64,000 nucleotides of DNA from an uncultured Gammaproteobacteria bacterium (GTDB lineage Bacteria; Patescibacteriota; Microgenomatia; Levybacterales; GWA1-39-11), in assembly GCA_964425075.1 (NCBI GenBank), contig CAYRKM010000002.1, positions 64,058 through 128,057 of the forward strand, written 5' to 3'. Made by a program: the position numbers and the translations under genes. Positions within the stretch are counted from its first letter, which is position 1; every line of letters begins with the position of its first letter. The notes under the pieces were generated by a model. It saw nothing but the letters and a program-made list of their open reading frames with translations. It was not told where the DNA came from and did not search any database. Shown one piece after another: positions 7,809 through 43,702 of this stretch.

Positions 7809-10800
7809 TTGAGTATTATGGAGACTTTACATTCCGGTTTTGATCATCCTCCCGTTGGTCCTGCTCCACATCCTGATTCTTCAGGTAGACCCGTCACCCA
7901 CCCACTTCCTGGCGAGCTAGATGGGGAAGGAATGCTTGATCCAACATCTTTGGATTTCTGGCGAAATCTTCATGCTAACCTTACAGGCTTTATAAGCAAG
8001 AACTATCCCTTTTCAGATTTCCTTAAGAATTTCGATAGTGAGAAAGGGAAAGTGGGTCGCACACATTCAAATGGCGATACAAACGCCACATACGCATACC
8101 TTAATGCAATTTATAAACAGCGTTCATTCTCGCATCCCGGCCATCCTACTCTTGAGCAGCATATCGTCTCGCAATTCACACCTCCTACAGATGACCCCGA
8201 CTTTGCTGAAATTGTTGAAGAAACCCGCTCTCTTATTAGACAGCGTTTTCCAGAACATCAGCTTCCTAGAACGACAAGTCTTGTCAAGCTCCAAGATCCG
8301 GAATTTTGGAGCGAATTTGAGGATGAGCTTTCAAAAACTCCTTCGAGTTCAATATTTGCGGATTTTTTAAAAGGAGGAGGTGGCCTTTCTGAAGACGGTA
8401 GTCAGATGCAGGGAAAGTATCATGATGTCTGGCTTGATATATACGATCCTCGGGGTAGAACTGAATTTAGAAATGCATATAAGGAACAAACAGGAAGAGA
8501 TATAGATACTGATTCTGCAAGAGACGCTCAGAGGATTTTCTTCGAAGTAGCACCAGCACGTATAAAAGCACAGCTTATTAAGAGATATCCGAGAATTTTT
8601 AGTGGATTTGCAGTAGAGTGGGTAGGAAATTCTCAATTACCAAAAGCTGCCCAGGCTGTCATTAACACTCTCGGGTGGTTAGGTGAAGATAACCGAAAAA
8701 AAATACTTGACGTACTTTCGAAATATGTGCATATAGAAACAAGTAGTACTTCGGGTTTTGATTTTTCTGCTGAAGATACTAGCATTATTCTTGGACAAGC
8801 AGCAGAACAATCAGAAGTTGTAGCAGCAGAAGTTGGTCCGCCAACACTCGAAACTATTATTCGAGACGCAACTAATACTTTTCAGCTTGTTGAACAAGAA
8901 AAGTTGGATAATGGGAATTCTGAAAATGAACAACTGTCAAGTGAGCTAACAGCTGCCCTTGAAACATCCTATCTTTACCCAACACTTCGTAATGTTTTAT
9001 ATAAACCTTTCGCACTTTTTTGGTCAAAATATCTGGAGACTCATGGTGGGTCCTCTGTTCCCGAAGATGAAATGAGAAGTTTTCTTGACACATATGCACA
9101 TAATGAAATTGCTCAAACATCTCTATCGCCCGAAGAGCAGCAAATGCTTGAGCGTCTTAAAAAAAATGTTTTTTCCACTATTTTTAGTGAATTTATAGAA
9201 ATTGCAAATTACTCTTCTCAAATTAATCACTTCAGGGAAAGAAGCATCGACGGGAAAGCAAAGCATCTGTTTTTTCATCAGGTTGAGGGAATTAAGCATC
9301 TTGTCGAAAAAGGCGCCGGAATTTTAGCTGATGAACCAGGAACCGGCAAAACAGTGACCCTTGCGCTCGCAGCATTAAATCGAGTTGACCAAAAATTTCG
9401 AGAACCTGGAAAAATAGCAAGGGTGCTAGTTGTTGGATCAAAAACTGTTAATAACAACTGGGAGGAAGAACTTGAAATGCATGTTGCGCCAGGTGATGTC
9501 GATACAGTAAATTTCAATTCTGACGAACTTGCACAGTTAAGCCAGGCAAAACGCCTTGAAATAATGGCACAAAGATTGAAAAATCCTACAGCGGATAGAC
9601 AAGTTTTGCTTGTCAATTACGATCTGTTTCGCAATTCATTTTTTCAGGAACTCCTTCATTCTGCAGGAATTGACTGTACAATAATTGATGAAGCTCATAA
9701 TGTAAAATCGCGTTTTATGGATTCTATTGCTGAGCATAACGACGACACGTCCCATAATGCTCGACTTGCAAAACGCACAACAAATCTTTATAGATTTCTT
9801 CTTTCCAACCCGAATATGGATGTTTATTTGGGTACTAGCACTCCCTTCGTCAAAGAATTAATAGAGCCGCTTATCATGGGTCACCTGGTCGATAGGTGGA
9901 GTCTTCCAATTGACCGGGTTTCAGCTTTAAGGGAGGATCCTGCTGGAGCAAATTTGGCACTTCGTGAAGTAATGATTCGGCGACGAAAGGATGCAATCAG
10001 CGATATCCCCCCAAAAGACACAGACTTTATACCAGTAGACTTAAGCCTACTTAGTGCTGCGGAACGCTCGGAGCTTGTTTCATTGGGCCTTGATATAGAA
10101 AGAGCCGATGAAAGCTCTTTCAGAAGATTTTTTTCCATGTTGTCTATTGAAGCTCAAGCAAAAATGCCCTGGCTTATTGAGAAAATAAACGAGTTAACAT
10201 CTGATGGAAGAAAGGTAGTTGTTTTTACTCCATTCGTTAATGACCAGGAAAGACTTACAGCCTCAATAAGTACGAAGGCTATTGCAAAGCGACTTATTGA
10301 TTCAGGAATTACCTCTGTTGGAGTTCTTGATGGAACTTTAAGTGAAAGCGAAAAACTTGCTGTTCAAAGAGATTTTCATGACCCGAATGGGGTAAGAGTT
10401 TTGGTAGGTAATTATCAAACGGCAGGCGAATCAATTACACTTAATTCGCCTTTCAATAGAGCAACTGAAGTAATTATACTCGTTGCACCAAACACAATAA
10501 GTAGATACATTCAAGCAATTGATAGAGTGCATAGAATCGGACAAGATGAGAAGGTTACTATTCACGTGCCTTTTCTTACGGAAGACCCTATCGCAAGGCC
10601 AGACGGAACATATGACAGACGAATTGTTAGTCGAATGCTTAGAGAACTTTCACTCTTTAATGCTGTTGTAGATGGTTTATTTTTTGTTGAAGCTGCAGAT
10701 TATTACGATGAAATTAGACGGGGAAAAAACGGAAACTCAGAACCAAGAACCGCTCTTGAAAGTGGACAAACAGTTCGTTTGGATACAGAACAGAAGCCTC

Positions 10801-12245
10801 CTGCTGCTACTAAAAAAAGGGGCTTAACTCGGGATGTTTTTGACCAAAACACTGACGGAGCAATAGTACTACCAACAAGCAGAGAGGTAAATTTAAACAG
10901 TATTGGCATAAATCACACACGACATCACCAAATAGACAGAGAGGAAGCTTTGGCAATTACAGATTACTTCGACTCAGTGAGTCAATACCCTCTCCTTACA
11001 GTTGAGCAAGAACGTATAGCATTTAGATATCTAACTGAGGGAAAATCTGTCGCACAACTTCGTGATGATGGAGCATTTCTTGCGGCAAATCCTCGTAGCA
11101 CTGCAAAAATGCTTGCTGTACTTTCCGATAGTCGCTCCGTTAGAGATGTACTTGTTGCCTGTAATTTGAGACTCGTTGCCTCAATAGCAAATAGGTACAA
11201 AGGAAGACTTCCTTACACTGACCTGCTCCAGGAGGGAAATATTGGATTAATTAAGGGAATTGACGATTTTGACCCTGAGCGTGGATTAAAGCTTTCAACA
11301 TATGCAACCTGGTGGATTAAGCAATCAATAAGGCGTGCTATTGCTAATACGTCCCGAACTATTGACTTGCCTGTACACATGCATGAAATGGTCACAAAAA
11401 TGGTGCGTGTTTCAAATGAATTTTTTAGTAAACACCAGCGCTATCCATCTATAGAGGAGCTGGTTTCAGAAGGGTTTACTATATCCCAAGTTAACACAGC
11501 TATGCGCATAGCACGACTTGGAATTTCCAACCCCTCATCTCTTGATAGAACAATAGACGATGATGGTGAAACCACAATCGGGTCATTTGTTTCGGACGAA
11601 GGTGATCTTGAAGAAGAAACTATAGCCGCGATGGAAGAGGCTGAGCAAAGTCATATCGTTGGGCGTGCACTTTTATCTTTAAGCGAACGGGAACAGTTGG
11701 TGCTTACTCTTAGATTCGGGCTTGATGGTTCTGGCACTAGAACCCTTGAACAGGTTGGTAAAGAAATTGGTGTGACAAGAGAAAGAGCACGACAAATAGA
11801 AGTTAGTGCCCTAAAAAGACTTCGAGTAAATACCGGGCTTAGGGAGGCATACGATGGAGATTCCCCAAGTTTGCTTTGGTCAAGGGAAGTCTTGCCTACA
11901 AACGTATTGCCTCTTAGACCAGGGCCAATAGACATTGAGAGGGTCTCAGCAATCTCACAAGCTCAAGAAGTAGAAAGGTTGGAGGAGGAGAAAAACAGTC
12001 TTGAATTTGGCAGACAAGTTGTGGAACAAATAAAAATGGTACCTGATATATGGAATGCTTTAACTGATAGAGAGAAGACGCTTTTGACTCTTTATTTTAA
12101 AGGCACATTTGACCACAACACTACTAAAAGTAGACTTTCAAAAATCTTTGGCATAACCGAACAAGAGCTGTCTGTTTACATCGAGTATTCTGTTGCTTCT
12201 CTAGCCAAACACGTTGGTATGACATCCTCTGAGCTTCCTTCTTGA
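7809..12245 (+). CDS. fusion protein: unknown N-terminal region + SNF2-family ATPase + complete sigma-70 + extra C-terminal region-4-like HTH
   Basis: Single 1478-codon ORF with no internal stop. The track start is TTG at 7809, and an ATG lies at 7818. SNF2 motifs: LADEPGTGKT, IIDEAHNVK, QAIDRVHRIGQ. Sigma motifs: YPLLTVEQE, LLQEGNIGLIKGIDDFD, TYATWWIKQSIRRAI, TIDLPVHMHE, VTRERARQIEVSALKRLR. Confidence 0.85.
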   Translation: MSIMETLHSGFDHPPVGPAPHPDSSGRPVTHPLPGELDGEGMLDPTSLDFWRNLHANLTGFISKNYPFSDFLKNFDSEKGKVGRTHSNGDTNATYAYLNAIYKQRSFSHPGHPTLEQHIVSQFTPPTDDPDFAEIVEETRSLIRQRFPEHQLPRTTSLVKLQDPEFWSEFEDELSKTPSSSIFADFLKGGGGLSEDGSQMQGKYHDVWLDIYDPRGRTEFRNAYKEQTGRDIDTDSARDAQRIFFEVAPARIKAQLIKRYPRIFSGFAVEWVGNSQLPKAAQAVINTLGWLGEDNRKKILDVLSKYVHIETSSTSGFDFSAEDTSIILGQAAEQSEVVAAEVGPPTLETIIRDATNTFQLVEQEKLDNGNSENEQLSSELTAALETSYLYPTLRNVLYKPFALFWSKYLETHGGSSVPEDEMRSFLDTYAHNEIAQTSLSPEEQQMLERLKKNVFSTIFSEFIEIANYSSQINHFRERSIDGKAKHLFFHQVEGIKHLVEKGAGILADEPGTGKTVTLALAALNRVDQKFREPGKIARVLVVGSKTVNNNWEEELEMHVAPGDVDTVNFNSDELAQLSQAKRLEIMAQRLKNPTADRQVLLVNYDLFRNSFFQELLHSAGIDCTIIDEAHNVKSRFMDSIAEHNDDTSHNARLAKRTTNLYRFLLSNPNMDVYLGTSTPFVKELIEPLIMGHLVDRWSLPIDRVSALREDPAGANLALREVMIRRRKDAISDIPPKDTDFIPVDLSLLSAAERSELVSLGLDIERADESSFRRFFSMLSIEAQAKMPWLIEKINELTSDGRKVVVFTPFVNDQERLTASISTKAIAKRLIDSGITSVGVLDGTLSESEKLAVQRDFHDPNGVRVLVGNYQTAGESITLNSPFNRATEVIILVAPNTISRYIQAIDRVHRIGQDEKVTIHVPFLTEDPIARPDGTYDRRIVSRMLRELSLFNAVVDGLFFVEAADYYDEIRRGKNGNSEPRTALESGQTVRLDTEQKPPAATKKRGLTRDVFDQNTDGAIVLPTSREVNLNSIGINHTRHHQIDREEALAITDYFDSVSQYPLLTVEQERIAFRYLTEGKSVAQLRDDGAFLAANPRSTAKMLAVLSDSRSVRDVLVACNLRLVASIANRYKGRLPYTDLLQEGNIGLIKGIDDFDPERGLKLSTYATWWIKQSIRRAIANTSRTIDLPVHMHEMVTKMVRVSNEFFSKHQRYPSIEELVSEGFTISQVNTAMRIARLGISNPSSLDRTIDDDGETTIGSFVSDEGDLEEETIAAMEEAEQSHIVGRALLSLSEREQLVLTLRFGLDGSGTRTLEQVGKEIGVTRERARQIEVSALKRLRVNTGLREAYDGDSPSLLWSREVLPTNVLPLRPGPIDIERVSAISQAQEVERLEEEKNSLEFGRQVVEQIKMVPDIWNALTDREKTLLTLYFKGTFDHNTTKSRLSKIFGITEQELSVYIEYSVASLAKHVGMTSSELPS
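9264..10583 (+). other. SNF2/Swi2-type helicase core (N-lobe plus Helicase_C lobe) inside the fusion ORF
   Basis: aa ~486-925. Walker A LADEPGTGKT (nt 9324-9353), DEAH box IIDEAHNVK (nt 9681-9707), motif III-like LGTSTPF, motif VI QAIDRVHRIGQ (nt 10512-10544). Confidence 0.8.
10938..11828 (+). other. sigma-70 regions 1.2, 2, 3 and 4 inside the fusion ORF
   Basis: aa ~1044-1340. By eye this aligns block for block with RpoD-type sigma factors, including the region 2.4 and 4.2 recognition helices. Confidence 0.85.
12036..12218 (+). other. second region-4-like HTH at the C-terminus of the fusion ORF
   Basis: aa ~1410-1470. LTDREKTLLTLYFKG...SRLSKIFGITEQELSVYIEYSVASLAKHV parallels the upstream LSEREQLVLTLRFGL...LEQVGKEIGVTRERARQIEVSALKRL. 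Confidence 0.55.
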
Positions 12246-13871: not shown

Positions 13872-13981
13872 GTATTACGTATTTTCTTGCCTCACTCATC
13901 CGTCCGAAGGTCGGATGAGCGGGATAAGAACACTTCGCCCTGCTCAGAACCTTGTCCCGTCAAAAAATCCTAGATTTTTTG

Positions 13982-15787: not shown

Positions 15788-15893
15788 TTTTTATCACCTC
15801 CTTTCGTATAGCCTAATTTAATAGTAGAACTGTTTTGGAATATTAGTCAAGGGGGTAAAATATCAGTACAAGAAGCCTTAAGGTGTACATTCC

Positions 15894-16114
15894 GTCGGGG
15901 ATAAAGCAAGTTTGTCCCCTTCTTCATTTCATTCAGTCGGGGATAAGGAAACCTTGTCCCCACCAAATTCTTCGAGTTTGTCGGGGATAGAGGACTCGTT
16001 CTGTGAAACAGCCTGCAAGACAATCCGACCTGCCGAAGGCAATAATGTCGGGGATAGAGGACTCGTTCTGTGAAACAGTCTGCAAGACAATCCGACCTGC
16101 CGAAGGCAATAATG
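15894..16114 (-). repeat. tandem truncated tRNA-Pro-derived repeats downstream of tRNA-Pro
   Basis: GTCGGGGATA recurs starting at 15894, 15936, 15980, 16047 and 16114. The last copy is the true tRNA 3' end. The two 67-nt units (15980-16046, 16047-16113) differ at 1 nt and carry 19 nt of the tRNA T-arm/acceptor 3' side. Confidence 0.85.
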
Positions 16115-19530: not shown

Positions 19531-19628
19531 GAACTCGCAAAGTGAACGAAACTAAAGTGCCTGCGCTGAATGAAGCTGAAGTGCTTGCACTGAGTGAAGC
19601 TGAAGTGCTTGCACTGAGTGAAGCGAAG
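19531..19628 (-). repeat. tRNA-trailer tandem repeats (24-nt unit with AGTGCWWGCACT box)
   Basis: Units GAAGTGCTTGCACTGAGTGAAGCT at 19578-19601 and 19602-19624. A variant unit sits at 19554-19577 and a degenerate unit at 19531-19553. The array abuts the 3' end of tRNA-Ala. Confidence 0.85.
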
Positions 19629-19699
19629 TGGACCCGAGGGGAATTGAACCCCTCCCTCATCCATGCCATGGATGCATTCTACCGATGAACTACGGGCCC
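19629..19699 (-). tRNA. tRNA-Ala (GGC)
   Basis: Hand-folded. Acceptor GGGCCCG with the G3:U70 identity pair, anticodon arm CATCC-ATGGCAT-GGATG, T-loop TTCAATT. Confidence 0.9.
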
Positions 19700-21679: not shown

Positions 21680-21754
21680 TTTGCCTGCACTGAACAAAGC
21701 TGAATGTGCTTGCACTGAACAAAGCTGAATGTGCTTGCACTGAGTGAAACGAAG
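21680..21754 (-). repeat. tRNA-trailer tandem repeats (three 25-nt units)
   Basis: Units at 21680-21704, 21705-21729 and 21730-21754 (TGTGCTTGCACTGAACAAAGCTGAA and variants). The array abuts the 3' end of tRNA-Leu(TAA). Confidence 0.85.
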
Positions 21755-21835
21755 TGCCTGGAAAGGGACTCGAACCCTTATCCCCGAAGGGACACGCTCT
21801 TAAGGCGTGCGTGTATACCATTCCACCACCCAGGC
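21755..21835 (-). tRNA. tRNA-Leu (TAA)
   Basis: Hand-folded class II tRNA. Anticodon arm CACGC-CTTAAGA-GCGTG, long variable arm, T-loop TTCGAGT. Confidence 0.9.
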
Positions 21836-33987: not shown

Positions 33988-34128
33988 TTTTATATATTTT
34001 TTTTCAAGTTTTAGTATTACATCCTCCCAAAAAATAATCAATATGTACAAGGCTAGCGGTTAGAATTAAACAGAGCTTAAGGTGTTTTCAAAGAATTGTC
34101 GAGGCTAAAATAAGAGCAAAAACCCTTG

Positions 34129-34199
34129 CTGCCGGTCCTGGATTCGAACCAGAATAAACGGATCCAAAGTCCGTTGTCCTACCGTTAGACGAACCGGCA
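34129..34199 (-). tRNA. tRNA-Gln (TTG)
   Basis: Hand-folded. U1:A72 acceptor, anticodon arm ACGGA-CTTTGGA-TCCGT, T-loop TTCGAAT. Confidence 0.9.
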
Positions 34200-34345
34200 A
34201 AAAATAAACTCGGGCAAATCACTTCACCAGAGCCTACCAATTATATACCTGTTTTGGGATATTTTCACCTTTTGCAAAGCAAAATCGAAATCTTTTTAAG
34301 ACAAAAGTCGTGCTCTTTTTGAAGGAAAAGTTCTATGACTAAGAA

Positions 34346-34786
34346 TTATTCGCGAGTATACAAACCCAATAGTTCGGCTTTATCGATTACATGATGCTCC
34401 ATCATCTCTTCCAATTCCTGCCTAGTGATATCCTCATTTGCATCAAGCATTGTGTTAAGAGCATAAAGTCTGAAAAAATACCTATGTGGACCAGTTGGAG
34501 GACAGGGACCCCCATATCCAGCATGTCCAAAATCAGTTACGCCCTCAACACTGTCTTCAGGAACAGAATCCTCCCCAATTCCTCGGGTATGCGGATCTAT
34601 ATTAAAAACAACCCAATGAACCCAAACTTTACCAGGAGCATCAGGATCATCAACTATAAGAACAAGACTTTGGGCATCTTCTGGTACATCCTGAAACACT
34701 AACGGAGGATTTATGTCCTCTCCATCGCATGTATATTGAGTTGGAATGTTTTGGTTATGTGTAAAAGCTGGACTTGTTATTCTCAC
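34346..34786 (-). CDS. YbhB/YbcL-family PEBP (Raf-kinase-inhibitor-like) protein
   Basis: DDPDAP, HWVVFNI and GYGGPCPPTGPHRYFFRLYAL signatures. GTG start. Confidence 0.85.
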   Translation of the reverse strand: MRITSPAFTHNQNIPTQYTCDGEDINPPLVFQDVPEDAQSLVLIVDDPDAPGKVWVHWVVFNIDPHTRGIGEDSVPEDSVEGVTDFGHAGYGGPCPPTGPHRYFFRLYALNTMLDANEDITRQELEEMMEHHVIDKAELLGLYTRE

Positions 34787-34854
34787 ATATTAACTCTACC
34801 AAAAGAGTTAAATAGACACAATAATATAATTTTGGTAGAATATGTAACACGTTT

Positions 34855-34938
34855 GGGCTTGTGCTGAAATTGGTATACAGGCATGCTTGAGGTGCATGTG
34901 TCAGTAATGGCGTGGAGGTTCGAGTCCTCTCAGGCCCA
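34855..34938 (+). tRNA. tRNA-Leu (GAG)
   Basis: Hand-folded class II tRNA. Anticodon arm CATGC-TTGAGGT-GCATG, long variable arm, T-loop TTCGAGT. Confidence 0.9.
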
Positions 34939-34975
34939 CACAGAAAGGTTTGGATAGGACTCGGATTTTGTCAAA

Positions 34976-35029
34976 GAGTCCTCTCAGGCCCACTTCGTCC
35001 GCCTACCGGCGGACTCAGTGCGGGCACTT
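34976..35029 (+). repeat. displaced duplicate of the tRNA-Leu(GAG) 3' end carrying the CTTC...AGTGCGGGCACT trailer
   Basis: The 17 nt GAGTCCTCTCAGGCCCA at 34976-34992 equals 34922-34938, and the trailer-family sequence follows it. A 5'-end fragment TTTGGGCTTGTCCTGA at 35056-35071 matches 34852-34867 at 15 of 16 positions. Confidence 0.8.
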
Positions 35030-35089
35030 TTATAAATATAGAATAGGTTTTCCTTTTTGGGCTTGTCCTGAGAAGGCAAAGCCGACGAA

Positions 35090-35162
35090 GGGCGATTAGC
35101 TCAGTTGGTAGAGCGCTTCGTTTACACCGAAGATGTCAGGGGTTCGAGCCCTCTATCGCCCA
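35090..35162 (+). tRNA. tRNA-Val (TAC)
   Basis: Hand-folded. Acceptor GGGCGAT/ATCGCCC, anticodon arm CTTCG-TTTACAC-CGAAG, T-loop TTCGAGC. Confidence 0.9.
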
Positions 35163-35186
35163 CAAAGATATGACCAAGTGAGATTT

Positions 35187-35259
35187 GCCAAGATTGCCAA
35201 GTTGGTCAAGGCGCGTGTCTGAAGAACACGTTATCCGGGTTCGATTCCTGGTCTTGGCA
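35187..35259 (+). tRNA. tRNA-Phe (GAA)
   Basis: Hand-folded. Acceptor GCCAAGA/TCTTGGC, anticodon arm CGTGT-CTGAAGA-ACACG, T-loop TTCGATT. Confidence 0.85.
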
Positions 35260-35264
35260 CAAAA

Positions 35265-35519
35265 ATGCAATATTTTGTGTACATTCTTGAATGCAGTGAT
35301 GGTTCGCTTTATACAGGCTATACAACTGATATAGAGCGAAGGGTGAAAGAGCACAACAAAGGAAAGAGCGGAGCTAAGTCTGTACGAGGGAAATTACCTG
35401 CCGAATTAGTTTACTCCGAAACCTTTGTAACTCTTTCAGAGGCATTGAAACGAGAAGCTGAAATCAAAAGTTGGAAGAGATACGAAAAACAAATGTTAAT
35501 AGCGACGAAGCGGGCGTAA
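35265..35519 (+). CDS. GIY-YIG nuclease-superfamily protein (stand-alone URI domain)
   Basis: 84 aa. YVYILECSDGSLYTGYTTDIERRVKEHN is the canonical GIY-YIG block. It starts 6 nt after tRNA-Phe. Confidence 0.85.
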   Translation: MQYFVYILECSDGSLYTGYTTDIERRVKEHNKGKSGAKSVRGKLPAELVYSETFVTLSEALKREAEIKSWKRYEKQMLIATKRA

Positions 35520-35567
35520 GAACCTTTCAATTTCATTGAAAGAACCTTGACCCCGCTCACTACGTTC

Positions 35568-35639
35568 GCGGGGGTAGTTCAGTGGTAGAACGCTTCCTTG
35601 CCAAGGAAGAGGTCGCCGGTTCGAATCCGGTTCCCCGCT
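35568..35639 (+). tRNA. tRNA-Gly (GCC)
   Basis: Hand-folded. Acceptor GCGGGGG/TCCCCGC, anticodon arm CTTCC-TTGCCAA-GGAAG, T-loop TTCGAAT. Confidence 0.9.
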
Positions 35640-35668
35640 CATAAACGATTTCTTTAGTACCTCAAAAC

Positions 35669-36076
35669 CTACATTGCAGCCAAAACTGCACCCATCAAAA
35701 CCAATGTTACCAATTGATAACTTGCATTTATCCAATACAAATTCAATGATTTTCCCTCATAAAGAACTGAGCTAATCATGATTGTTGCAACAAATCCAAG
35801 CCACACCCAAAATCCAACTATAGCACCGCTCATTATGTCCATTGCACCCGCAAATGAAATAATGTTTGAGAGAACATAGGCAGTAATTATAGAGGCAACA
35901 GCTTGTACTCCATAAATCATTGGCATATTAGTCTTTGAACCATTCATTTTTTTTCGACTTATACCAGTTAACTTCATCCATTGTTTACCAAATCCAGCTG
36001 GAGAGTACCAAAAAGTTCCAAGCGCCATAGCAATCACTGCAGAAATAATAACAGCAACCCAATTTGTGTCCATCAT
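35669..36076 (-). CDS. DUF1761-family membrane protein
   Basis: 135 aa, 4 TM helices. The N-terminal WVAVIISAVIAMALGTFWYSP..FGKQW is typical of DUF1761. Confidence 0.65.
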   Translation of the reverse strand: MMDTNWVAVIISAVIAMALGTFWYSPAGFGKQWMKLTGISRKKMNGSKTNMPMIYGVQAVASIITAYVLSNIISFAGAMDIMSGAIVGFWVWLGFVATIMISSVLYEGKSLNLYWINASYQLVTLVLMGAVLAAM

Positions 36077-36207
36077 ATAACTTCACCTCCCCTCACATTT
36101 CAGATACTTTTAAAGTATCACCATAAGAGTTATGAAGTCAAATGCCTAAAACATGAGTAGATACTTCAATTTATGTTAAAAAACAATAACTCTGATATAA
36201 TGCTGCA

Positions 36208-36699
36208 ATGACTGAATTTGACCCTAAAAGAACTGGACCTGACCAAACTCCGCACTCACTTACACCAGAAAAGGTGAAAAGACTATTACCTCAAGGCGAT
36301 AGATTTAGATTTGTGAGTGAAGTTTTAGAGTATGAACCAGGGAAGCGGATCCTTGCAAGATTGGCAGATTTGGAAGGGCCTGAATTTGACTACCTAAAGG
36401 ATCACATGCCCGGAAACCCATTTATTCCAGGAACCATTCTCCAAGAAGCACTGGAACAAGCAGGAAGTTTGATTATAGCTGACTCTATTCCAGAAAATAG
36501 TTTTGCATTTCTCCGAGGAATTGATAAGTTTAGATGGTATGGATTTGTTGGGCTCGATGAGGAAGTGCTACTTGAAGCCAAAATAATCACGTTGAGATCC
36601 AATGCCGGGAAGGCTTCGCTAACAGCAACGAGGAGTGGTGAAATTGTGGCTTCAGGGCGAGTAATATTTGGTATTGGAGAAAAACCTCAGCTTGCTTAA
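36208..36699 (+). CDS. FabZ/FabA-like hotdog-fold dehydratase
   Basis: LPQGDRFRFVSEV and DHMPGNPFIPGTILQEALEQAG match the FabZ active-site region pattern (H...P..PG....E). TGATATAAT ends 6 nt before the ATG. Confidence 0.7.
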   Translation: MTEFDPKRTGPDQTPHSLTPEKVKRLLPQGDRFRFVSEVLEYEPGKRILARLADLEGPEFDYLKDHMPGNPFIPGTILQEALEQAGSLIIADSIPENSFAFLRGIDKFRWYGFVGLDEEVLLEAKIITLRSNAGKASLTATRSGEIVASGRVIFGIGEKPQLA

Positions 36700-36803
36700 G
36701 ACTTTTTTTAACATATTTGACCTTAAGTCTTCTAGACTGAGATTTTCAACAAAATCTTGCTACATAATTTTTTTCTAAGGATTAAAAATAAAGCCTATAA
36801 TAC

Positions 36804-36832
36804 TTGACATTTTGAACATCTCGTGCTAATAT
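36804..36832 (+). promoter_or_regulatory. near-consensus sigma-70 promoter for the G+C-rich RNA island
   Basis: TTGACA (36804-36809), a 17-nt spacer ending in TGC, then TAATAT (36827-36832), giving an extended -10. Confidence 0.65.
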
Positions 36833-36838
36833 GCGCCT

Positions 36839-37310
36839 ATTCTGACTGATGGAAGTTTGAAGTGGTCAGCACTTATGTGTCTGAGCAGGGAGAACCTCCA
36901 AAGGTCTAGGAAGGACGGTTCGTTGAAACAGGTGGATAGCTAGCCGGCTTCGGCCGGATCCGGTGAAGGACCGGAAATGCAGCATGCTTGTGGAAGTCGG
37001 TCCCGGAAGGGATGACAACCACGCAGCCCGGGTGAAACCGGGTACGGAAAGGAGCAAGCCACATATGCTTGCGACCAGCACCGGACGGATGCTAAAGTTC
37101 GACGCGATCGACACCGCCGACCCGAACGACGTCATCGTCGGCTACTCGCCCACCCCGGATGGGGTCAACGGCACGTAGCTCGCCGCGACCGTCCCGAACG
37201 CTGCTAGACCGCTAGCCTAGAGAGGGAAACCTTTCTTTGCTAGCCAAAGCTAGCGCCACGTTCACCGCCCCCCGTCTTGGCACTGCCAAGTCGGGGGGCA
37301 ACTCTTTTCC
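36839..37310 (+). ncRNA. unclassified G+C-rich, hairpin-dense RNA candidate (~470 nt)
   Basis: It lies between a consensus promoter and a terminator. At least 9 local hairpins are present, including C(UUCG)G at 36944-36957, a GGAA loop at 37001-37012, a GUGAAA loop at 37027-37042 and a GAAA loop at 37221-37234. Long-range complementarity links 36903-36918 with 37189-37210. No downstream same-strand gene follows. Confidence 0.55.
37268..37310 (+). terminator. intrinsic-terminator-like hairpin ending the G+C-rich island
   Basis: CCCCCCGTCTTGGC/GCCAAGTCGGGGGG stem (13 bp, 1 mismatch, 3-nt loop), followed by a CTCTTTTCC T-tract. Confidence 0.55.
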
Positions 37311-37350
37311 TCTCCAAAAAAAATTCTTGAGAAATTAAATTAGAGACAAT

Positions 37351-37491
37351 GATGTGCCTGCACTGTGCAAGAAGTGTTACGTTGTGAAACAAAGTCTCGA
37401 AGTGCTTTCATCGATCAAGAAGTGCTTGCGCTGAACGAAATGGAAGCCTGCACTGAATGAAGTTGAGGTGCTTGCACTGAACGTAGTGAAG
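37351..37491 (-). repeat. tRNA-trailer repeat array downstream of tRNA-Leu(CAG)
   Basis: On the minus strand it reads CTTCACTACGTTCAGTGCAAGCACCTCAACTTCATTCAGTGCAGGC..., with 4-5 boxes of the AGTGCWWGCACT family that degenerate with distance. Confidence 0.8.
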
Positions 37492-37574
37492 TGCCCGAAA
37501 AAGGAGTCGAACCTTCACACCCATAAGGGCACAGCGTTCTGAACACTGCGTGTCTACCATTCCACCATTCGGGC
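37492..37574 (-). tRNA. tRNA-Leu (CAG)
   Basis: Hand-folded class II tRNA. Anticodon arm CAGTG-TTCAGAA-CGCTG, long variable arm, T-loop TTCGACT. Confidence 0.9.
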
Positions 37575-37718
37575 AACAAACATATTGTAACAGAGACAAT
37601 TTATATCATAATTACTCAATTTCAAAGAAAAAAATTTGCCTGTAAATATTACCTTTAGACTATCTTATCAATCCAAACAGCACTTGACCAGAATTTTTTT
37701 TTATGGTTCTATAGAAAG

Positions 37719-38351
37719 ATGCAAGACAGGGTAAACACTAATTCCTCTAATTTTGAAAGCAAAAGCAATTCATCTCTTAAAAAGGTTTTGTTAGTAAGCA
37801 TTTATTTATCAGCCATTCCAATATTTATCGTTTTTGTAATGCTGTTTTCTCTTTACGCAAAGTACGACGTCAATGGATATATTTCTCGTCAGAATATTTC
37901 CCTTAATTACCGAGCTTTACCTGAAAATAGTAATAATAGTACTGTTTCTCTTGAAGCAGACGACGCTAGAATTCAAGCTCTCGAGGAGTTATTTGATACT
38001 TATGACTCACCTCTAGTTGGTCATGCAGCAAAAATAGTAGAAGAGGCTGATAAGCACAATATAGACTATAGACTTTTACCCTCAATCGCTATGCAAGAAA
38101 GCACTTTGTGTAAAAAAATTATAAAAGACTCTCATAATTGCTGGGGTTTTGGAATTTATGGAGGAAAAGTAACAAAATTTGATAACTATAATGAGGCAAT
38201 AGAAACTGTAACAAGAACATTATCCAAAAAATATGTTCAAGCTGGACTTGAAGAACCACATGAAATTGTAGAGAAATATACGCCATCTGATGACGGAAAA
38301 TGGGCAAATGTAGTCAATATGATGATGGAAACTATCAAAAACTCACTTTAA
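37719..38351 (+). CDS. membrane-anchored lysozyme-superfamily peptidoglycan hydrolase-like protein (paralog 1)
   Basis: 210 aa, N-terminal TM. IVEEADKHNIDYRLLPSIAMQEST...HNCWGFG resembles the SLT/glucosaminidase catalytic-Glu region. It is a paralog of the next CDS. Confidence 0.55.
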   Translation: MQDRVNTNSSNFESKSNSSLKKVLLVSIYLSAIPIFIVFVMLFSLYAKYDVNGYISRQNISLNYRALPENSNNSTVSLEADDARIQALEELFDTYDSPLVGHAAKIVEEADKHNIDYRLLPSIAMQESTLCKKIIKDSHNCWGFGIYGGKVTKFDNYNEAIETVTRTLSKKYVQAGLEEPHEIVEKYTPSDDGKWANVVNMMMETIKNSL

Positions 38352-38538: not shown

Positions 38539-39129
38539 ATGCAACTTATAAAGGTTACATTAAATATGAAAAGATATATTTTACCTATTATACTTTTGGC
38601 TTTTGCCAACGCAGCTATGCCATGGGCCCTTATGCCTAGGGTGTATCAAGCCTACGCGAAAGATACTGCATATACAAATGCGGAACTTTCTGTGGCTTTA
38701 AAAAATACTTCAGGAAATGACATGCGTGTTGATGCTTTGAGAATTATTTTTGAAAAGCGCAACTCTCCTTTAGTGCCTTATGCTAAGGCATATGTAGAAC
38801 TTGCTGATAAGCACGGTGTTGACTGGAAACTTTTACCTGCTATTTCAGGTCTTGAATCCTCATTTGGTATTCATTTAATGCCTGGCTCCCACAATGGTTA
38901 TGGGTGGGGTGGTGGACATATCTACTTCTCGTCTTGGGAAGAGGGTATTGATACTATTAACAAGGCTCTTGCTGAAAAGTATTATGGCCGTGGGGCAAAT
39001 ACTGTATGGAAAATTGGTCCTATTTATGCTGAGTCGCCTACTTGGGCTGTGAGAGTAAATAGCTTTATGGAGCAAATTGAGGCCGAGCATAACAAATTGC
39101 AAAACTCTAAGCTTGCCTTGACTATTTAA
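38539..39129 (+). CDS. secreted lysozyme-superfamily peptidoglycan hydrolase-like protein (paralog 2)
   Basis: YVELADKHGVDWKLLPAISGLESSFG...HNGYGWGG parallels paralog 1. The start is probably the ATG at 38566 (MKRYILPIILLAFANA signal peptide). Confidence 0.55.
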   Translation: MQLIKVTLNMKRYILPIILLAFANAAMPWALMPRVYQAYAKDTAYTNAELSVALKNTSGNDMRVDALRIIFEKRNSPLVPYAKAYVELADKHGVDWKLLPAISGLESSFGIHLMPGSHNGYGWGGGHIYFSSWEEGIDTINKALAEKYYGRGANTVWKIGPIYAESPTWAVRVNSFMEQIEAEHNKLQNSKLALTI

Positions 39130-39170
39130 GGATAGCCTCAAACCCTCTTTTAGAGTATAATTGCCATATT

Positions 39171-39253
39171 GCCCGAGTGGTGAAATGGTATACACGCTAG
39201 TTTTAGGAACTAGTACCCTTACAGGTGTGGAGGTTCGAGTCCTCTCTCGGGCA
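39171..39253 (+). tRNA. tRNA-Leu (TAG)
   Basis: Hand-folded class II tRNA. Anticodon arm CTAGT-TTTAGGA-ACTAG, long variable arm, T-loop TTCGAGT. Confidence 0.9.
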
Positions 39254-39352
39254 CTTCACTACGTTCAGTGCAAGCACCTCAACTTCATTCAGTGCAGGCT
39301 TCCATTTCGTTCAGTGCAAGTACTTCGGGGCCTTGTTTCTCAGCGCTTGCAC
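39254..39352 (+). repeat. tRNA-trailer repeat array downstream of tRNA-Leu(TAG)
   Basis: The first 72 nt (39254-39325) match the reverse complement of 37420-37491 at all but 2 positions. Four boxes of the AGTGCWWGCACT family are present. Confidence 0.85.
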
Positions 39353-43534: not shown

Positions 43535-43623
43535 CGCTGAAGCGTTGCATTGACATTGCAGAGGCCAGAGAAGGAATTTCATTAATGAAATTCGACTGTC
43601 GTCAGCGAATCCTCTTGGGTCCA
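43535..43623 (+). pseudogene. decayed tRNA-Val-like remnant
   Basis: 20 nt at 43541-43560 are identical to the anticodon arm at 43475-43494. The remnant ends in ...GGGTCCA directly followed by the CTTCACTTCGTTCAGTGCA trailer. No intact T-arm or acceptor is present. Confidence 0.45.
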
Positions 43624-43690
43624 CTTCACTTCGTTCAGTGCAGGCACTTCAGTTTCGTTCAGCACGGGTACTTCGTTACACTCAGCACAG
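43624..43690 (+). repeat. tRNA-trailer repeat array
   Basis: CTTCACTTCGTTCAGTGCAGGCACTTCAGTTTCGTTCAGCACGGGTACTTCGTTACACTCAGCACAGACAC, i.e. three progressively degenerate units. Confidence 0.8.
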
Positions 43691-43702
43691 ACACATTTTC
43701 CC

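Follow-up and report, generated by a model that had tools for sequence, protein, structure and literature searches.

Large ornate non-coding RNAs, exemplified by GOLLD, ROOL, OLE, HEARO and raiA, extend over hundreds of nucleotides, exceed their surroundings in G+C content, are dense in hairpins with GNRA or UNCG caps, and form independent units adjacent to tRNA genes. All of these traits are shared by a G+C-rich segment located at positions 36833-37347 of the window, which is the whole 64-kb stretch of DNA analysed here, from an A+T-rich, CPR-like genome. However, the segment yields no covariance match to these RNAs at E <= 10 and is without homologues or covariation; it occurs in one lineage and is missing in the nearest relative, and its centre shows coding-type periodicity without excess structure. 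A further group of systems, dual-function RNAs and mRNAs of small proteins with structured untranslated regions, such as SR1/SR1P, RNAIII/hld and SgrS/SgrT, combines a promoter and a terminator of its own with a stable, highly folded RNA and a very short open reading frame (ORF) preceded by a Shine-Dalgarno (SD) sequence, in which structure could gate the ribosome-binding site. The segment would resemble them in each of these respects, but it bears no sequence or family relationship to them, the only target complementarity identified is that to tRNA trailers, and its peptide has no homologues and a foreign codon composition.

Another point of comparison is offered by horizontally acquired "moron" cassettes and tRNA islets, which are compact promoter-ORF-terminator units of deviant composition, present or absent between relatives and associated with repeats resembling tRNA 3' ends. 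The same description would fit the segment, yet it lies outside any recognisable prophage or island, with no integrase or recombinase nearby, its boundaries carry no clear target duplications, and the ORF makes up only about a quarter of the unit. A likeness also exists to the diverged RNase P RNAs of CPR bacteria, which in 10 of 35 circular CPR genomes were found only by sub-threshold searches (PMC8172020): the genome is CPR-like, and the segment is G+C-rich, about 400 nt long and missed at Rfam gathering thresholds. In contrast to the segment, those RNAs score with RF00010 at lowered thresholds and retain P4, CR-I and CR-V (PMC8172020).

The segment is tentatively read (rough probability 0.38) as an expression cassette of about 0.5 kb that is self-contained, specific to its lineage and probably acquired horizontally, and that adjoins, and probably lies within, the trailer repeats of tRNA-Leu(cag). 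Its RNA would best be regarded as the mRNA of a small protein, with an unusual degree of structure in the untranslated regions and possibly with a dual function. Transcription of the plus strand from a host-type sigma-70 promoter would yield an RNA of about 470 nt. Its initial ~225 nt would form a hairpin-rich leader, in which a hairpin derived from a tRNA-trailer repeat of the host precedes five short ones that are rich in G+C and carry UUCG- or GNRA-type caps. At the end of the leader, the SD-like sequence GGAAAGGAG and an ATG would lie within or at a hairpin; next would come an ORF of 37 codons, whose codon composition is that of a high-G+C organism, and a rod of about 24 bp and a G+C-rich hairpin would close the unit. 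The structure may serve to stabilise the transcript and to gate the ribosome-binding site. We infer transcription, translation, foreign origin and all functional roles of the cassette from these features. Should the segment function as an RNA or mini-gene, it would represent a rare, recently gained and strongly structured transcript in a reduced, A+T-rich genome with leaderless mRNAs, and also a candidate for new RNA biology tied to tRNA trailers.

When G+C is measured over 200 nt at a time, the segment alone exceeds 56% in the 64-kb window, peaking at 66% against a window mean of 37.8%, and the composition changes abruptly at both of its flanks. An earlier note on this DNA had described it as G+C-rich and hairpin-dense, a description borne out here, the segment being the only G+C island in the window, and the hand counts given there, 38 and 19 G+C in 60 nt inside and outside the segment, were exact. 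Within an A+T-rich genome, a peak of G+C does not suffice to call a structured non-coding RNA; here the reading was changed by codon periodicity, by regional fold statistics and by whether relatives have the segment. No second copy was found within the window, which argues against a template/variable-repeat pair of a diversity-generating retroelement. Beyond the right edge, the minus strand carries the gene for tRNA-Leu(cag) (37491-37574), correctly noted before as antisense, together with its 3' trailer of ~23-nt repeats (37351-37490); both are convergent with the unit. Tandem Repeats Finder returned nothing in the region. Most genes of the host are SD-less and apparently leaderless.

On the plus strand, the segment is preceded by a sigma-70-type promoter with an extended -10 element, TTGACA-17 nt-TGcTAATAT (36804-36832), which has 10 of 12 matches with the TG present and whose string and position had been given correctly. 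Promoters of the same class precede several protein genes of the window as well as tRNA-Leu(gag), and the chance of an equally good inward-pointing match within 40 nt upstream was estimated by us at <0.01, on the basis of 24 such sites in 128 kb of strand. Transcription would start near 36839. At the other end lies a putative terminator (37267-37316, plus strand), in which a G+C-rich hairpin (37267-37299; 14 bp including a U.U mismatch) is followed by AACUCUUUUCCUCUCC, with a free energy of -30.8 kcal/mol and z = -7.0. The terminator-like hairpin previously placed at 37268-37298 is therefore present and strong, but its tail, CAACUCUUUUCC, is interrupted and offers no clean U run, and a rule-based terminator scan did not call it. 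Homology of this hairpin to the terminator hairpin of the tRNA in the relative failed a shuffle test, in which 560 of 2000 shuffles scored equally. A promoter of a class seen before other genes of the window and a strong end hairpin together support a discrete plus-strand transcription unit, which is what the segment looks like.

The fold of the segment has a minimum free energy (MFE) of -216.4 kcal/mol, against -173 +/- 6.2 kcal/mol for dinucleotide shuffles (z = -7.0), and the minus strand gives z = -4.6. The plus strand is also favoured by 10 G.U pairs against a single A.C mismatch, and UNCG or GNRA caps close three of the seven tetraloops of the MFE fold on the plus strand and none on the minus strand, the forms cUUCGg, cGGAAg and gGAAAc being found on the plus strand only. 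The excess of folding, computed as z by sub-region, is uneven along the segment. An imperfect 5' hairpin (36842-36906) is predicted with pair probabilities of ~0.99 and z = -3.3. The array of five hairpins that follows (36944-37072), recognised from the sequence and the predicted fold, consists of a cUUCGg hairpin (36944-57), UCCGGU/ACCGGA (36959-75), a GGAA-capped hairpin with an AA/AA internal loop (36989-37023), GCCCGG-GUGAAA-CCGGGU (37026-43) and GCAAGC-CACAUAU-GCUUGC (37054-72); over 36908-37076, its excess is modest and without strand preference (z = -2.8 plus, -3.4 minus). The central part, 37077-37195, shows no significant excess (z = -1.1), as is expected for a coding sequence. The 3' rod, of ~24 bp with a GAAA cap (37196-37263), is built from GAACG/CGUUC, UGCUAG/CUAGCG, GCUAGC/GCUAGC and AGAGAGG/CCUUUCU, and reaches pair probabilities of 0.98-1.00; it favours the plus strand, with z-scores of -6.8 (plus) and -3.3 (minus). 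The excess structure is predicted to reside in the 5' hairpin, the five-hairpin leader, the ~24-bp 3' rod and the end hairpin. The central domain would be closed by a long-range helix, GGACGGU/ACCGUCC (36913-36919 with 37188-37194; mean pair probability 0.93), and the sequence also allows an alternative outer helix, GGUCUAG/CUAGACC (36903-36909 with 37204-37210). The eight local hairpins listed earlier, as well as the long-range pairs between 36903-36918 and 37189-37210, were found with the strings and coordinates reported.

The part of the segment with least structure coincides with signs of coding. An ORF of 37 codons (37065-37178, plus strand; MLATSTGRMLKFDAIDTADPNDVIVGYSPTPDGVNGT), with a second in-frame ATG at 37089, is preceded by the SD-like sequence at 37046-37054, 10 nt before the ATG at 37065. 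The SD-like sequence and the AUG stand at the upstream edge of the periodic zone and, according to computed unpaired probabilities, are partly sequestered in the hairpin at 37054-72. The third codon position is G or C in 33 of 37 codons (89%, counted by hand), which is foreign to a genome of 38% G+C. Codon-type 3-nt periodicity, delimited by maximum likelihood to 37096-37200 in the frame of the ORF, has a log-likelihood ratio of 14.7 nats in that frame vs ~3.3 in the other frames; over 150 nt the G+C fractions at codon positions 1/2/3 are 0.57/0.49/0.88, a value reached by 1 of 2000 shuffles (p ~0.001). The periodic zone covers about a quarter to a third of the segment, and the enclosing 37077-37195 is no more structured than shuffles. 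It is, however, offset from the ORF: it begins 31 nt past the ATG and overruns the stop codon by 22 nt, and a 21-nt motif is repeated 72 nt (24 codons) later, past the stop. The 3' rod starts 18 nt beyond the stop codon, so that rod and end hairpin complete a gene-like layout.

The peptide has no credible homologue among ~15 billion predicted proteins, and the 71-aa forward and 89-aa reverse ORFs gave no match in a 5.8-billion-cluster protein index. In an exhaustive HMMER search, the 37-aa ORF matched nothing but highly repetitive proteins (PKD x27, PKD x9, FN3 x12 and two other repeat proteins), and these matches were discounted because summed repeat scores inflate chance similarity. With hmmscan, translations of 37, 51 and 71 aa matched no Pfam family at E <= 10. 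A custom PKD profile scores the peptide at 12.9 bits, a circular result as the profile was built from proteins that the peptide itself had selected, and the host's own PKD protein aligns to it at E = 0.07. A fragment of a PKD-domain gene was considered on these grounds and set aside, the direct scan with Pfam PKD/PKD_4 being empty, and this lead stays unproven. Scanning metagenomes with a peptide pattern led to a single locus (L019), where the chance 8-mer GPGRDDNH occurs in an unrelated gene without DNA similarity.

The FabA-like gene neighbouring the segment has a single relative in the protein collection, 79% identical (locus L018), and only distant ones in species-representative genomes. 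Locus L018 aligns with the window up to ~36796 (TAAAGCC) and resumes at ~37351-37398, so that a stretch of ~550 nt (36797-37350) is missing from this sole relative locus found; nothing between the aligned flanks matches, and its FabA-like gene is separated from the tRNA-trailer repeats by ~140 nt. Trailer-repeat units flank the segment on both sides, and positions 36842-36874, within the 5' hairpin, are a diverged antisense copy of the repeat unit found behind several tRNA genes of the host (local alignment; 9 of 1000 shuffles score equally, p ~0.009). Such a copy at the left end is consistent with insertion into a tRNA-trailer array. No convincing terminal inverted repeats or target duplications were seen at the segment, and no integrase or recombinase was recognised among the neighbouring ORFs scanned against Pfam. 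Homologues were not found by blastn against phages and plasmids, with five patterns in viral contigs, with a loop-anchored, stem-free pattern in JGI metagenomes, or by nhmmer and blastn against all fetched loci. With no homologue found and the relative lacking the segment, the helices have no covariation support.

Rfam supports the earlier note in placing the segment outside the classes covered: no family matched it at the gathering threshold over the whole window, and searches of three slices (721, 316 and 261 nt) at E <= 10, with matches listed down to ~8-10 bits, returned only noise, OLE, GOLLD, ROOL, HEARO and raiA being absent from it. The best near-match was DUF3800-X (RF02984; 36986-37059), with 17.7 bits vs a gathering score of 38.2 and E ~0.5-1. 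Its outer helix, GCUUGU/GCAAGC, can form in the segment; however, several pairs of the model are non-canonical here, the predicted local hairpins are unlike the model fold, and there is no DUF3800 gene near the segment.

Within the cassette reading, several points weigh against the proposal. A leader of 225 nt is unusual for an ORF of 37 codons, no donor sequence was found, the peptide is without a credible homologue, the SD and AUG are partly buried, integrase, terminal inverted repeats and target duplication are lacking, and SD-driven translation is uncertain in a host whose genes mostly do without it. Moreover, since the periodicity is offset from the ends of the ORF, a broken fragment of a longer gene explains the pattern no less well than an intact small gene would. 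This leads to a possible but rather doubtful alternative, in which the segment is a non-functional remnant of foreign high-G+C DNA, with donor intergenic hairpins and a gene fragment deposited in the tRNA-trailer region and not yet eroded, and in which the promoter match is fortuitous or secondary. Composition and third-position G+C foreign to the host, absence in the relative and a weak PKD-domain-like peptide match would agree with it, and the overrun of the in-frame stop together with the recurring 21-nt motif suggests a once-longer frame. Repeats linked to tRNA genes, among which the segment sits, are classical spots of integration and recombination, and G+C-rich hairpins with UUCG or GNRA caps are typical of terminators in high-G+C genomes. 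A remnant accounts poorly, however, for an inward-pointing promoter exactly at the 5' edge, a strong hairpin at the 3' edge, and an SD and ATG where the periodic zone begins; nearly all stems are perfect, with G.U far above A.C, and thus show little sign of decay, the donor has not been found, and the PKD likeness fails the direct Pfam scan and is circular with the custom profile. That the segment is a true stand-alone non-coding RNA, structured and of a new class, with the codon-like stretch as an evolutionary leftover or an untranslated embedded feature, appears unlikely. The promoter and end hairpin that bracket the G+C island, the whole-unit z of -7.0 with the plus strand favoured, the canonical caps, the long-range closing helix and the lack of an Rfam family to explain the segment all speak for it, as do the four self-complementary GCUAGC motifs and seven CUAG (1.4 expected), which could mediate alternative or intermolecular pairing, and large ornate RNAs tend to lie near tRNA genes. 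Nevertheless, the closest relative lacks the segment and no helix has covariation support, the central ~120 nt combine coding-type periodicity with a structure no greater than that of shuffles, the hairpin array is modest and not strand-specific, and a G+C content of 66% is above what we would expect a native RNA to need in a 38% genome, judging from its tRNA genes. Of the earlier proposal of a stand-alone, ornate non-coding or dual-function RNA, the discrete and strongly structured plus-strand unit survives and the dual-function wording is compatible with the findings, but the ornate non-coding part, which calls for conservation or covariation, is unsupported or contradicted in view of the codon-periodic 37096-37200 overlapping an SD-preceded ORF, of the 5' hairpin being a copy of a host repeat, and of the absence in the relative and of any homologue in the collections searched.

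A diverged housekeeping RNA missed by standard models, namely RNase P RNA, tmRNA or SRP RNA, is very improbable, even though a size of ~400-470 nt, G+C richness and a promoter of its own would fit, diverged RNase P RNAs are on record for CPR genomes (PMC8172020), and the embedded short ORF is superficially tmRNA-like. No RNase P (RF00010, RF00011), tmRNA or SRP model matched at the gathering score or at E <= 10 on the slices of 261-721 nt. By hand inspection CR-V (ACNNNANNNNGNNUA) is absent, and the strings most like CR-I (GAGGAAAGUCC) have 6 mismatches in 15 and pair locally or in the wrong order, leaving no P4; short RNase P look-alike strings, GGGUGAAAcc, GGAGCAAGcc and GGAAGUC, do occur in the segment. 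ARAGORN found no tmRNA in the window by default, and at thresholds of 80% and 60% it gave only mutually inconsistent permuted calls on both strands. Inspection revealed no acceptor domain and no T-arm beside either strand of the 7-bp closing helix, the third pair of which is U-A, vs the expected G3:U70, and the ORF ends in ...GVNGT, vs a degron tag rich in Ala and hydrophobic residues. For SRP RNA, the symmetric and asymmetric loops that flank the GGAA tetraloop of domain IV are absent from the GGAA hairpin at 36989-37023, whose Watson-Crick stems are continuous and carry an AA/AA loop and a G bulge instead. A housekeeping gene is also not normally missing from a syntenic site, even if relocation is possible. 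The abrupt composition jump on both sides and the metagenomic source could further point to an assembly chimera, in which reads of a high-G+C organism were joined into an A+T-rich contig; such an error seems extremely improbable, as it would need two junctions 0.5 kb apart, and the sequence makes continuous sense, with the promoter, a repeat of host type on the left and the hairpin on the right. A separately assembled Logan contig (L001) carries the identical sequence, together with the left junction and the beginning of the trailer repeats beyond the right edge of the segment, though the two assemblies may share reads.

More speculatively, the segment might be the first, and to date the only, sampled representative of a new class of large structured or dual-function RNA, ~470 nt long, in a rarely sampled CPR-like lineage. 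The GCUAGC motifs and capped domains would then act as RNA, a peptide of 29-37 aa would be encoded, and the 5' hairpin would be antisense to tRNA trailers; this extension is improbable as a whole. A link with the maturation or turnover of tRNA is hinted at by the 5' hairpin, whose sequence runs antisense to the 3' trailers of several precursor tRNAs. Six-base palindromes are mildly enriched in the segment, with 13 seen vs 7.3 (72 of 2000 shuffles reach that number).

The G+C-rich, hairpin-dense plus-strand segment at about 36797–37350 is real and striking; it alone within the 64-kb window (37.8% G+C overall) exceeds 56% G+C in 200-nt windows, over the region 36833–37347 and with a peak of 66%. 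The strings and coordinates reported for it in the earlier note were all correct on re-checking: the promoter TTGACA-17-TAATAT at 36804–36832 is present, with TG two bases ahead of the -10 hexamer, all eight local hairpins were found, as were the long-range complementary blocks and the hairpin at 37268–37298, the hand-counted G+C values (38/60 and 19/60) were exact, and tRNA-Leu(cag) (37491–37574) lies on the minus strand. Promoter-like sites of the 36804 class also precede tRNA-Leu(gag), trigger factor and further genes of the window. The end hairpin (37267–37299) comprises a 14-bp stem of -30.8 kcal/mol with one U.U mismatch and the tail AACUCUUUUCC, and it was not called by a rule-based terminator scan. 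Between 36838 and 37312 there are 7 CTAG sites, where shuffles predict 1.4, GCTAGC is present four times, and six-base palindromes are mildly enriched (13 vs 7.3), including GGATCC, CATATG (at the ORF start), CCCGGG, CGATCG, GACGTC and GCATGC.

The search against Rfam families proposed in that note revealed no match of the segment to a known family. With Rfam 15 at gathering thresholds, the whole window yielded 14 tRNAs and nothing else, and slices of 721, 316 and 261 nt searched at E <= 10 returned only noise, the best near-match being DUF3800-X, whose 17.7 bits fall short of the gathering score (38.2). Since diverged RNase P RNAs below Rfam thresholds have been reported in circular candidate-phyla-radiation genomes (PMC8172020), the segment was also checked by hand for RNase P RNA; the CR-V motif is absent, and CR-I-like strings pair locally or stand in the wrong order for P4. 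For tmRNA, ARAGORN made no call at its default threshold and nothing but permuted calls that disagreed with one another, on both strands, once the threshold was lowered to 80% and 60%, and neither a T-arm nor an acceptor domain was seen on inspection. The GGAA hairpin of the segment lacks the SRP domain IV loops.

As a 475-nt plus-strand RNA, the segment is predicted to fold with -216.4 kcal/mol, compared with -173 +/- 6 in dinucleotide-shuffled sequence (z = -7.0), while the minus strand gave z = -4.6. In the MFE fold, three of the seven tetraloops are cUUCGg, cGGAAg or gGAAAc on the plus strand, the opposite strand would form no UNCG or GNRA loop, and 10 G.U pairs stand against one A.C mismatch. 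Region-by-region statistics place the excess structure outside the central part: z = -3.3 for the 5′ hairpin (36842–36906), -2.8 for the five-hairpin array (36944–37072), which is not strand-specific, -6.8 for the plus-strand-specific 3′ rod (37196–37265) and -7.0 for the end hairpin, with 37077–37195 showing structure no greater than chance (z = -1.1).

A strong 3-nt periodicity was found at about 37063–37212, with G+C of roughly 0.6, 0.4 and 0.9–0.95 at codon positions 1, 2 and 3, a contrast that just 1 in 2000 dinucleotide shuffles attained. By maximum likelihood, the periodic segment extends over 37096–37200 (LLR of 14.7 nats vs about 3.3 for the other frames), and the periodic frame holds a 37-codon plus-strand ORF, from ATG 37065 to TAG 37178, encoding MLATSTGRMLKFDAIDTADPNDVIVGYSPTPDGVNGT. 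An SD-like GGAAAGGAG lies 10 nt ahead of this ATG, and both are partly buried in a predicted hairpin. Judged by composition, a third-position G+C of about 90% is foreign to a host of 38% G+C. Inside the periodic segment, CGAC was read by eye four times at 9-nt spacing in 37100–37139 (GAC GCG ATC / GAC ACC GCC / GAC CCG AAC / GAC GTC ATC), where Tandem Repeats Finder reported nothing; this recurrence adds to the periodicity without fully accounting for it.

A word-indexed protein search with the peptide returned no relative. The five proteins that an exhaustive HMMER search gave are all highly repetitive (one with 27 PKD domains, one with 9, one with 12 FN3 domains, and a further two repeat proteins) and were discounted because summed weak matches in repeat targets inflate significance. 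The peptide can be aligned with the F-D-A-s-x-S-x-D-P-D-G-x-I-x-x-Y stretch of PKD repeats; its alignment with the PKD protein of the host is weak (E = 0.07). The PKD lead is recorded as unproven, since a direct Pfam scan gave no family at E <= 10 and the match to a custom PKD profile is circular; by these searches, the peptide appears to have no credible relatives.

Species-representative genomes contain only distant relatives of the FabA-like gene that flanks the segment (36208–36699), and the protein collection contains exactly one relative, of 79% identity. The contig carrying the latter (L018) shares the order DUF1761 gene, FabA-like gene, trailer repeats and tRNA-Leu, with only about 140 nt between the FabA-like gene and the repeats, and no part of 36797–37350 aligns to it. 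A TerC/DUF475 membrane-protein gene lies between tRNA-Gly and the DUF1761 gene in L018 (125–1105) and is missing from the window (compared at 35641–35669), so several insertions or deletions separate the two lineages here. No homologue of the segment was found by blastn against phage and plasmid collections, with five segment patterns in viral contigs, with a loop-anchored, free-stem pattern in JGI metagenomes, or by nhmmer against all fetched loci; peptide patterns in JGI metagenomes gave one match, a chance 8-mer.

The small-expression-unit layout, the foreign composition and the absence in the relative point, tentatively (probability about 0.38), to a lineage-specific, probably acquired cassette, whose product would be an mRNA for a small protein, structured in its untranslated regions and possibly of dual function. 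The promoter would be followed by a hairpin-rich leader of about 225 nt, then by the SD and ATG partly within a hairpin and the 37-codon ORF, and, 18 nt further on, by the rod of roughly 24 bp and the strong hairpin, which would complete the unit. Close to this reading, if somewhat doubtful, comes a dead fragment of foreign DNA. In its favour, the periodicity runs past the stop codon, and a 21-nt motif recurs 72 nt downstream, beyond that stop.

A true new non-coding RNA also comes close to the acquired cassette and is rather less probable than a dead fragment; the stable loops specific to the plus strand, the predicted long-range closing helix and the enrichment of GCUAGC and CUAG argue for it. 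The earlier note had proposed an ornate RNA of unknown class: its description is accurate and the feature real, but a new class is not demonstrated, as the claim is based on a single sequence, finds no support from comparison, and loses weight through the coding-like core. A diverged housekeeping RNA is very unlikely, and an assembly chimera slightly more so, given that the segment has the identical sequence in L001, a second, separately built assembly of this organism. On present evidence, the segment is to be read as an orphan cassette specific to its lineage, not as an established new class of RNA.

The window is cellular and appears to belong to a candidate-phyla-radiation (Patescibacteria-type) bacterium, given its PPIase-less short trigger factor, DUF5660, peptidoglycan genes, aminoacyl-tRNA synthetases and SNF2-sigma70 fusion. 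In a collection of 15 billion proteins, those of the window occur as singletons, and the lineage is therefore rarely sampled. Among the start regions of 42 ORFs of at least 120 aa across the whole window, most lack an SD, and the TATAAT-like boxes 6–10 nt before the ATG of many genes suggest widespread leaderless mRNAs. All 14 tRNA genes lack an encoded CCA.

Tandem repeats of about 23 nt (consensus, tRNA-sense, roughly TTCAnCTTCAnTCAGTGCAAGCAC) follow five tRNA genes of the window (19555–19630, 21682–21760, 37351–37490, 39255–39330 and 43622–43694) and recur in L018 (2296–2400). They begin directly behind the 3′ end of tRNA-Ala and of three tRNA-Leu genes, and at tRNA-Val a spacer lies in between. 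The 5′ hairpin (at 36842–36874) is a diverged antisense copy of this unit (p about 0.009), and the G+C-rich body thus seems to lie within the tRNA-Leu(cag) trailer array. Each unit terminates in GCAC, like tRNA acceptor 3′ ends; the repeats resemble degenerate copies of tRNA 3′ ends, and might serve as trailer decoys or as signals for processing or termination, or else be att scars. Downstream of tRNA-Pro (minus strand; 15888–16112), two near-identical 67-nt direct repeats and shorter copies each finish with its last 9–13 nt (ATCCCCGAC), and a copy of the tRNA-Gly 3′ end (TATCCCGCTC) lies downstream of that gene (13900–13980), a pattern such as may be left by site-specific integration. A 158-nt inverted repeat, 86% complementary (37419–37576 / 39169–39326), corresponds to tRNA-Leu(cag) and tRNA-Leu(tag) with their trailers, and encloses two paralogous glucosaminidase-like genes (37719–38351 and 38539–39129).

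The cumulative GC skew reaches its minimum at about 34000–38000. As would be seen at a replication origin, genes and tRNAs lie mostly on the minus strand to the left of this region and mostly on the plus strand to its right. However, 34785–38107 contains no 9-mer that resembles a DnaA box with up to one mismatch, and no dnaA was found among 30 window ORFs scanned against Pfam. A 1478-aa plus-strand ORF (7809–12245) combines an SNF2/helicase module (residues about 490–910) with sigma-70 regions 2 and 4 (about 1115–1340).
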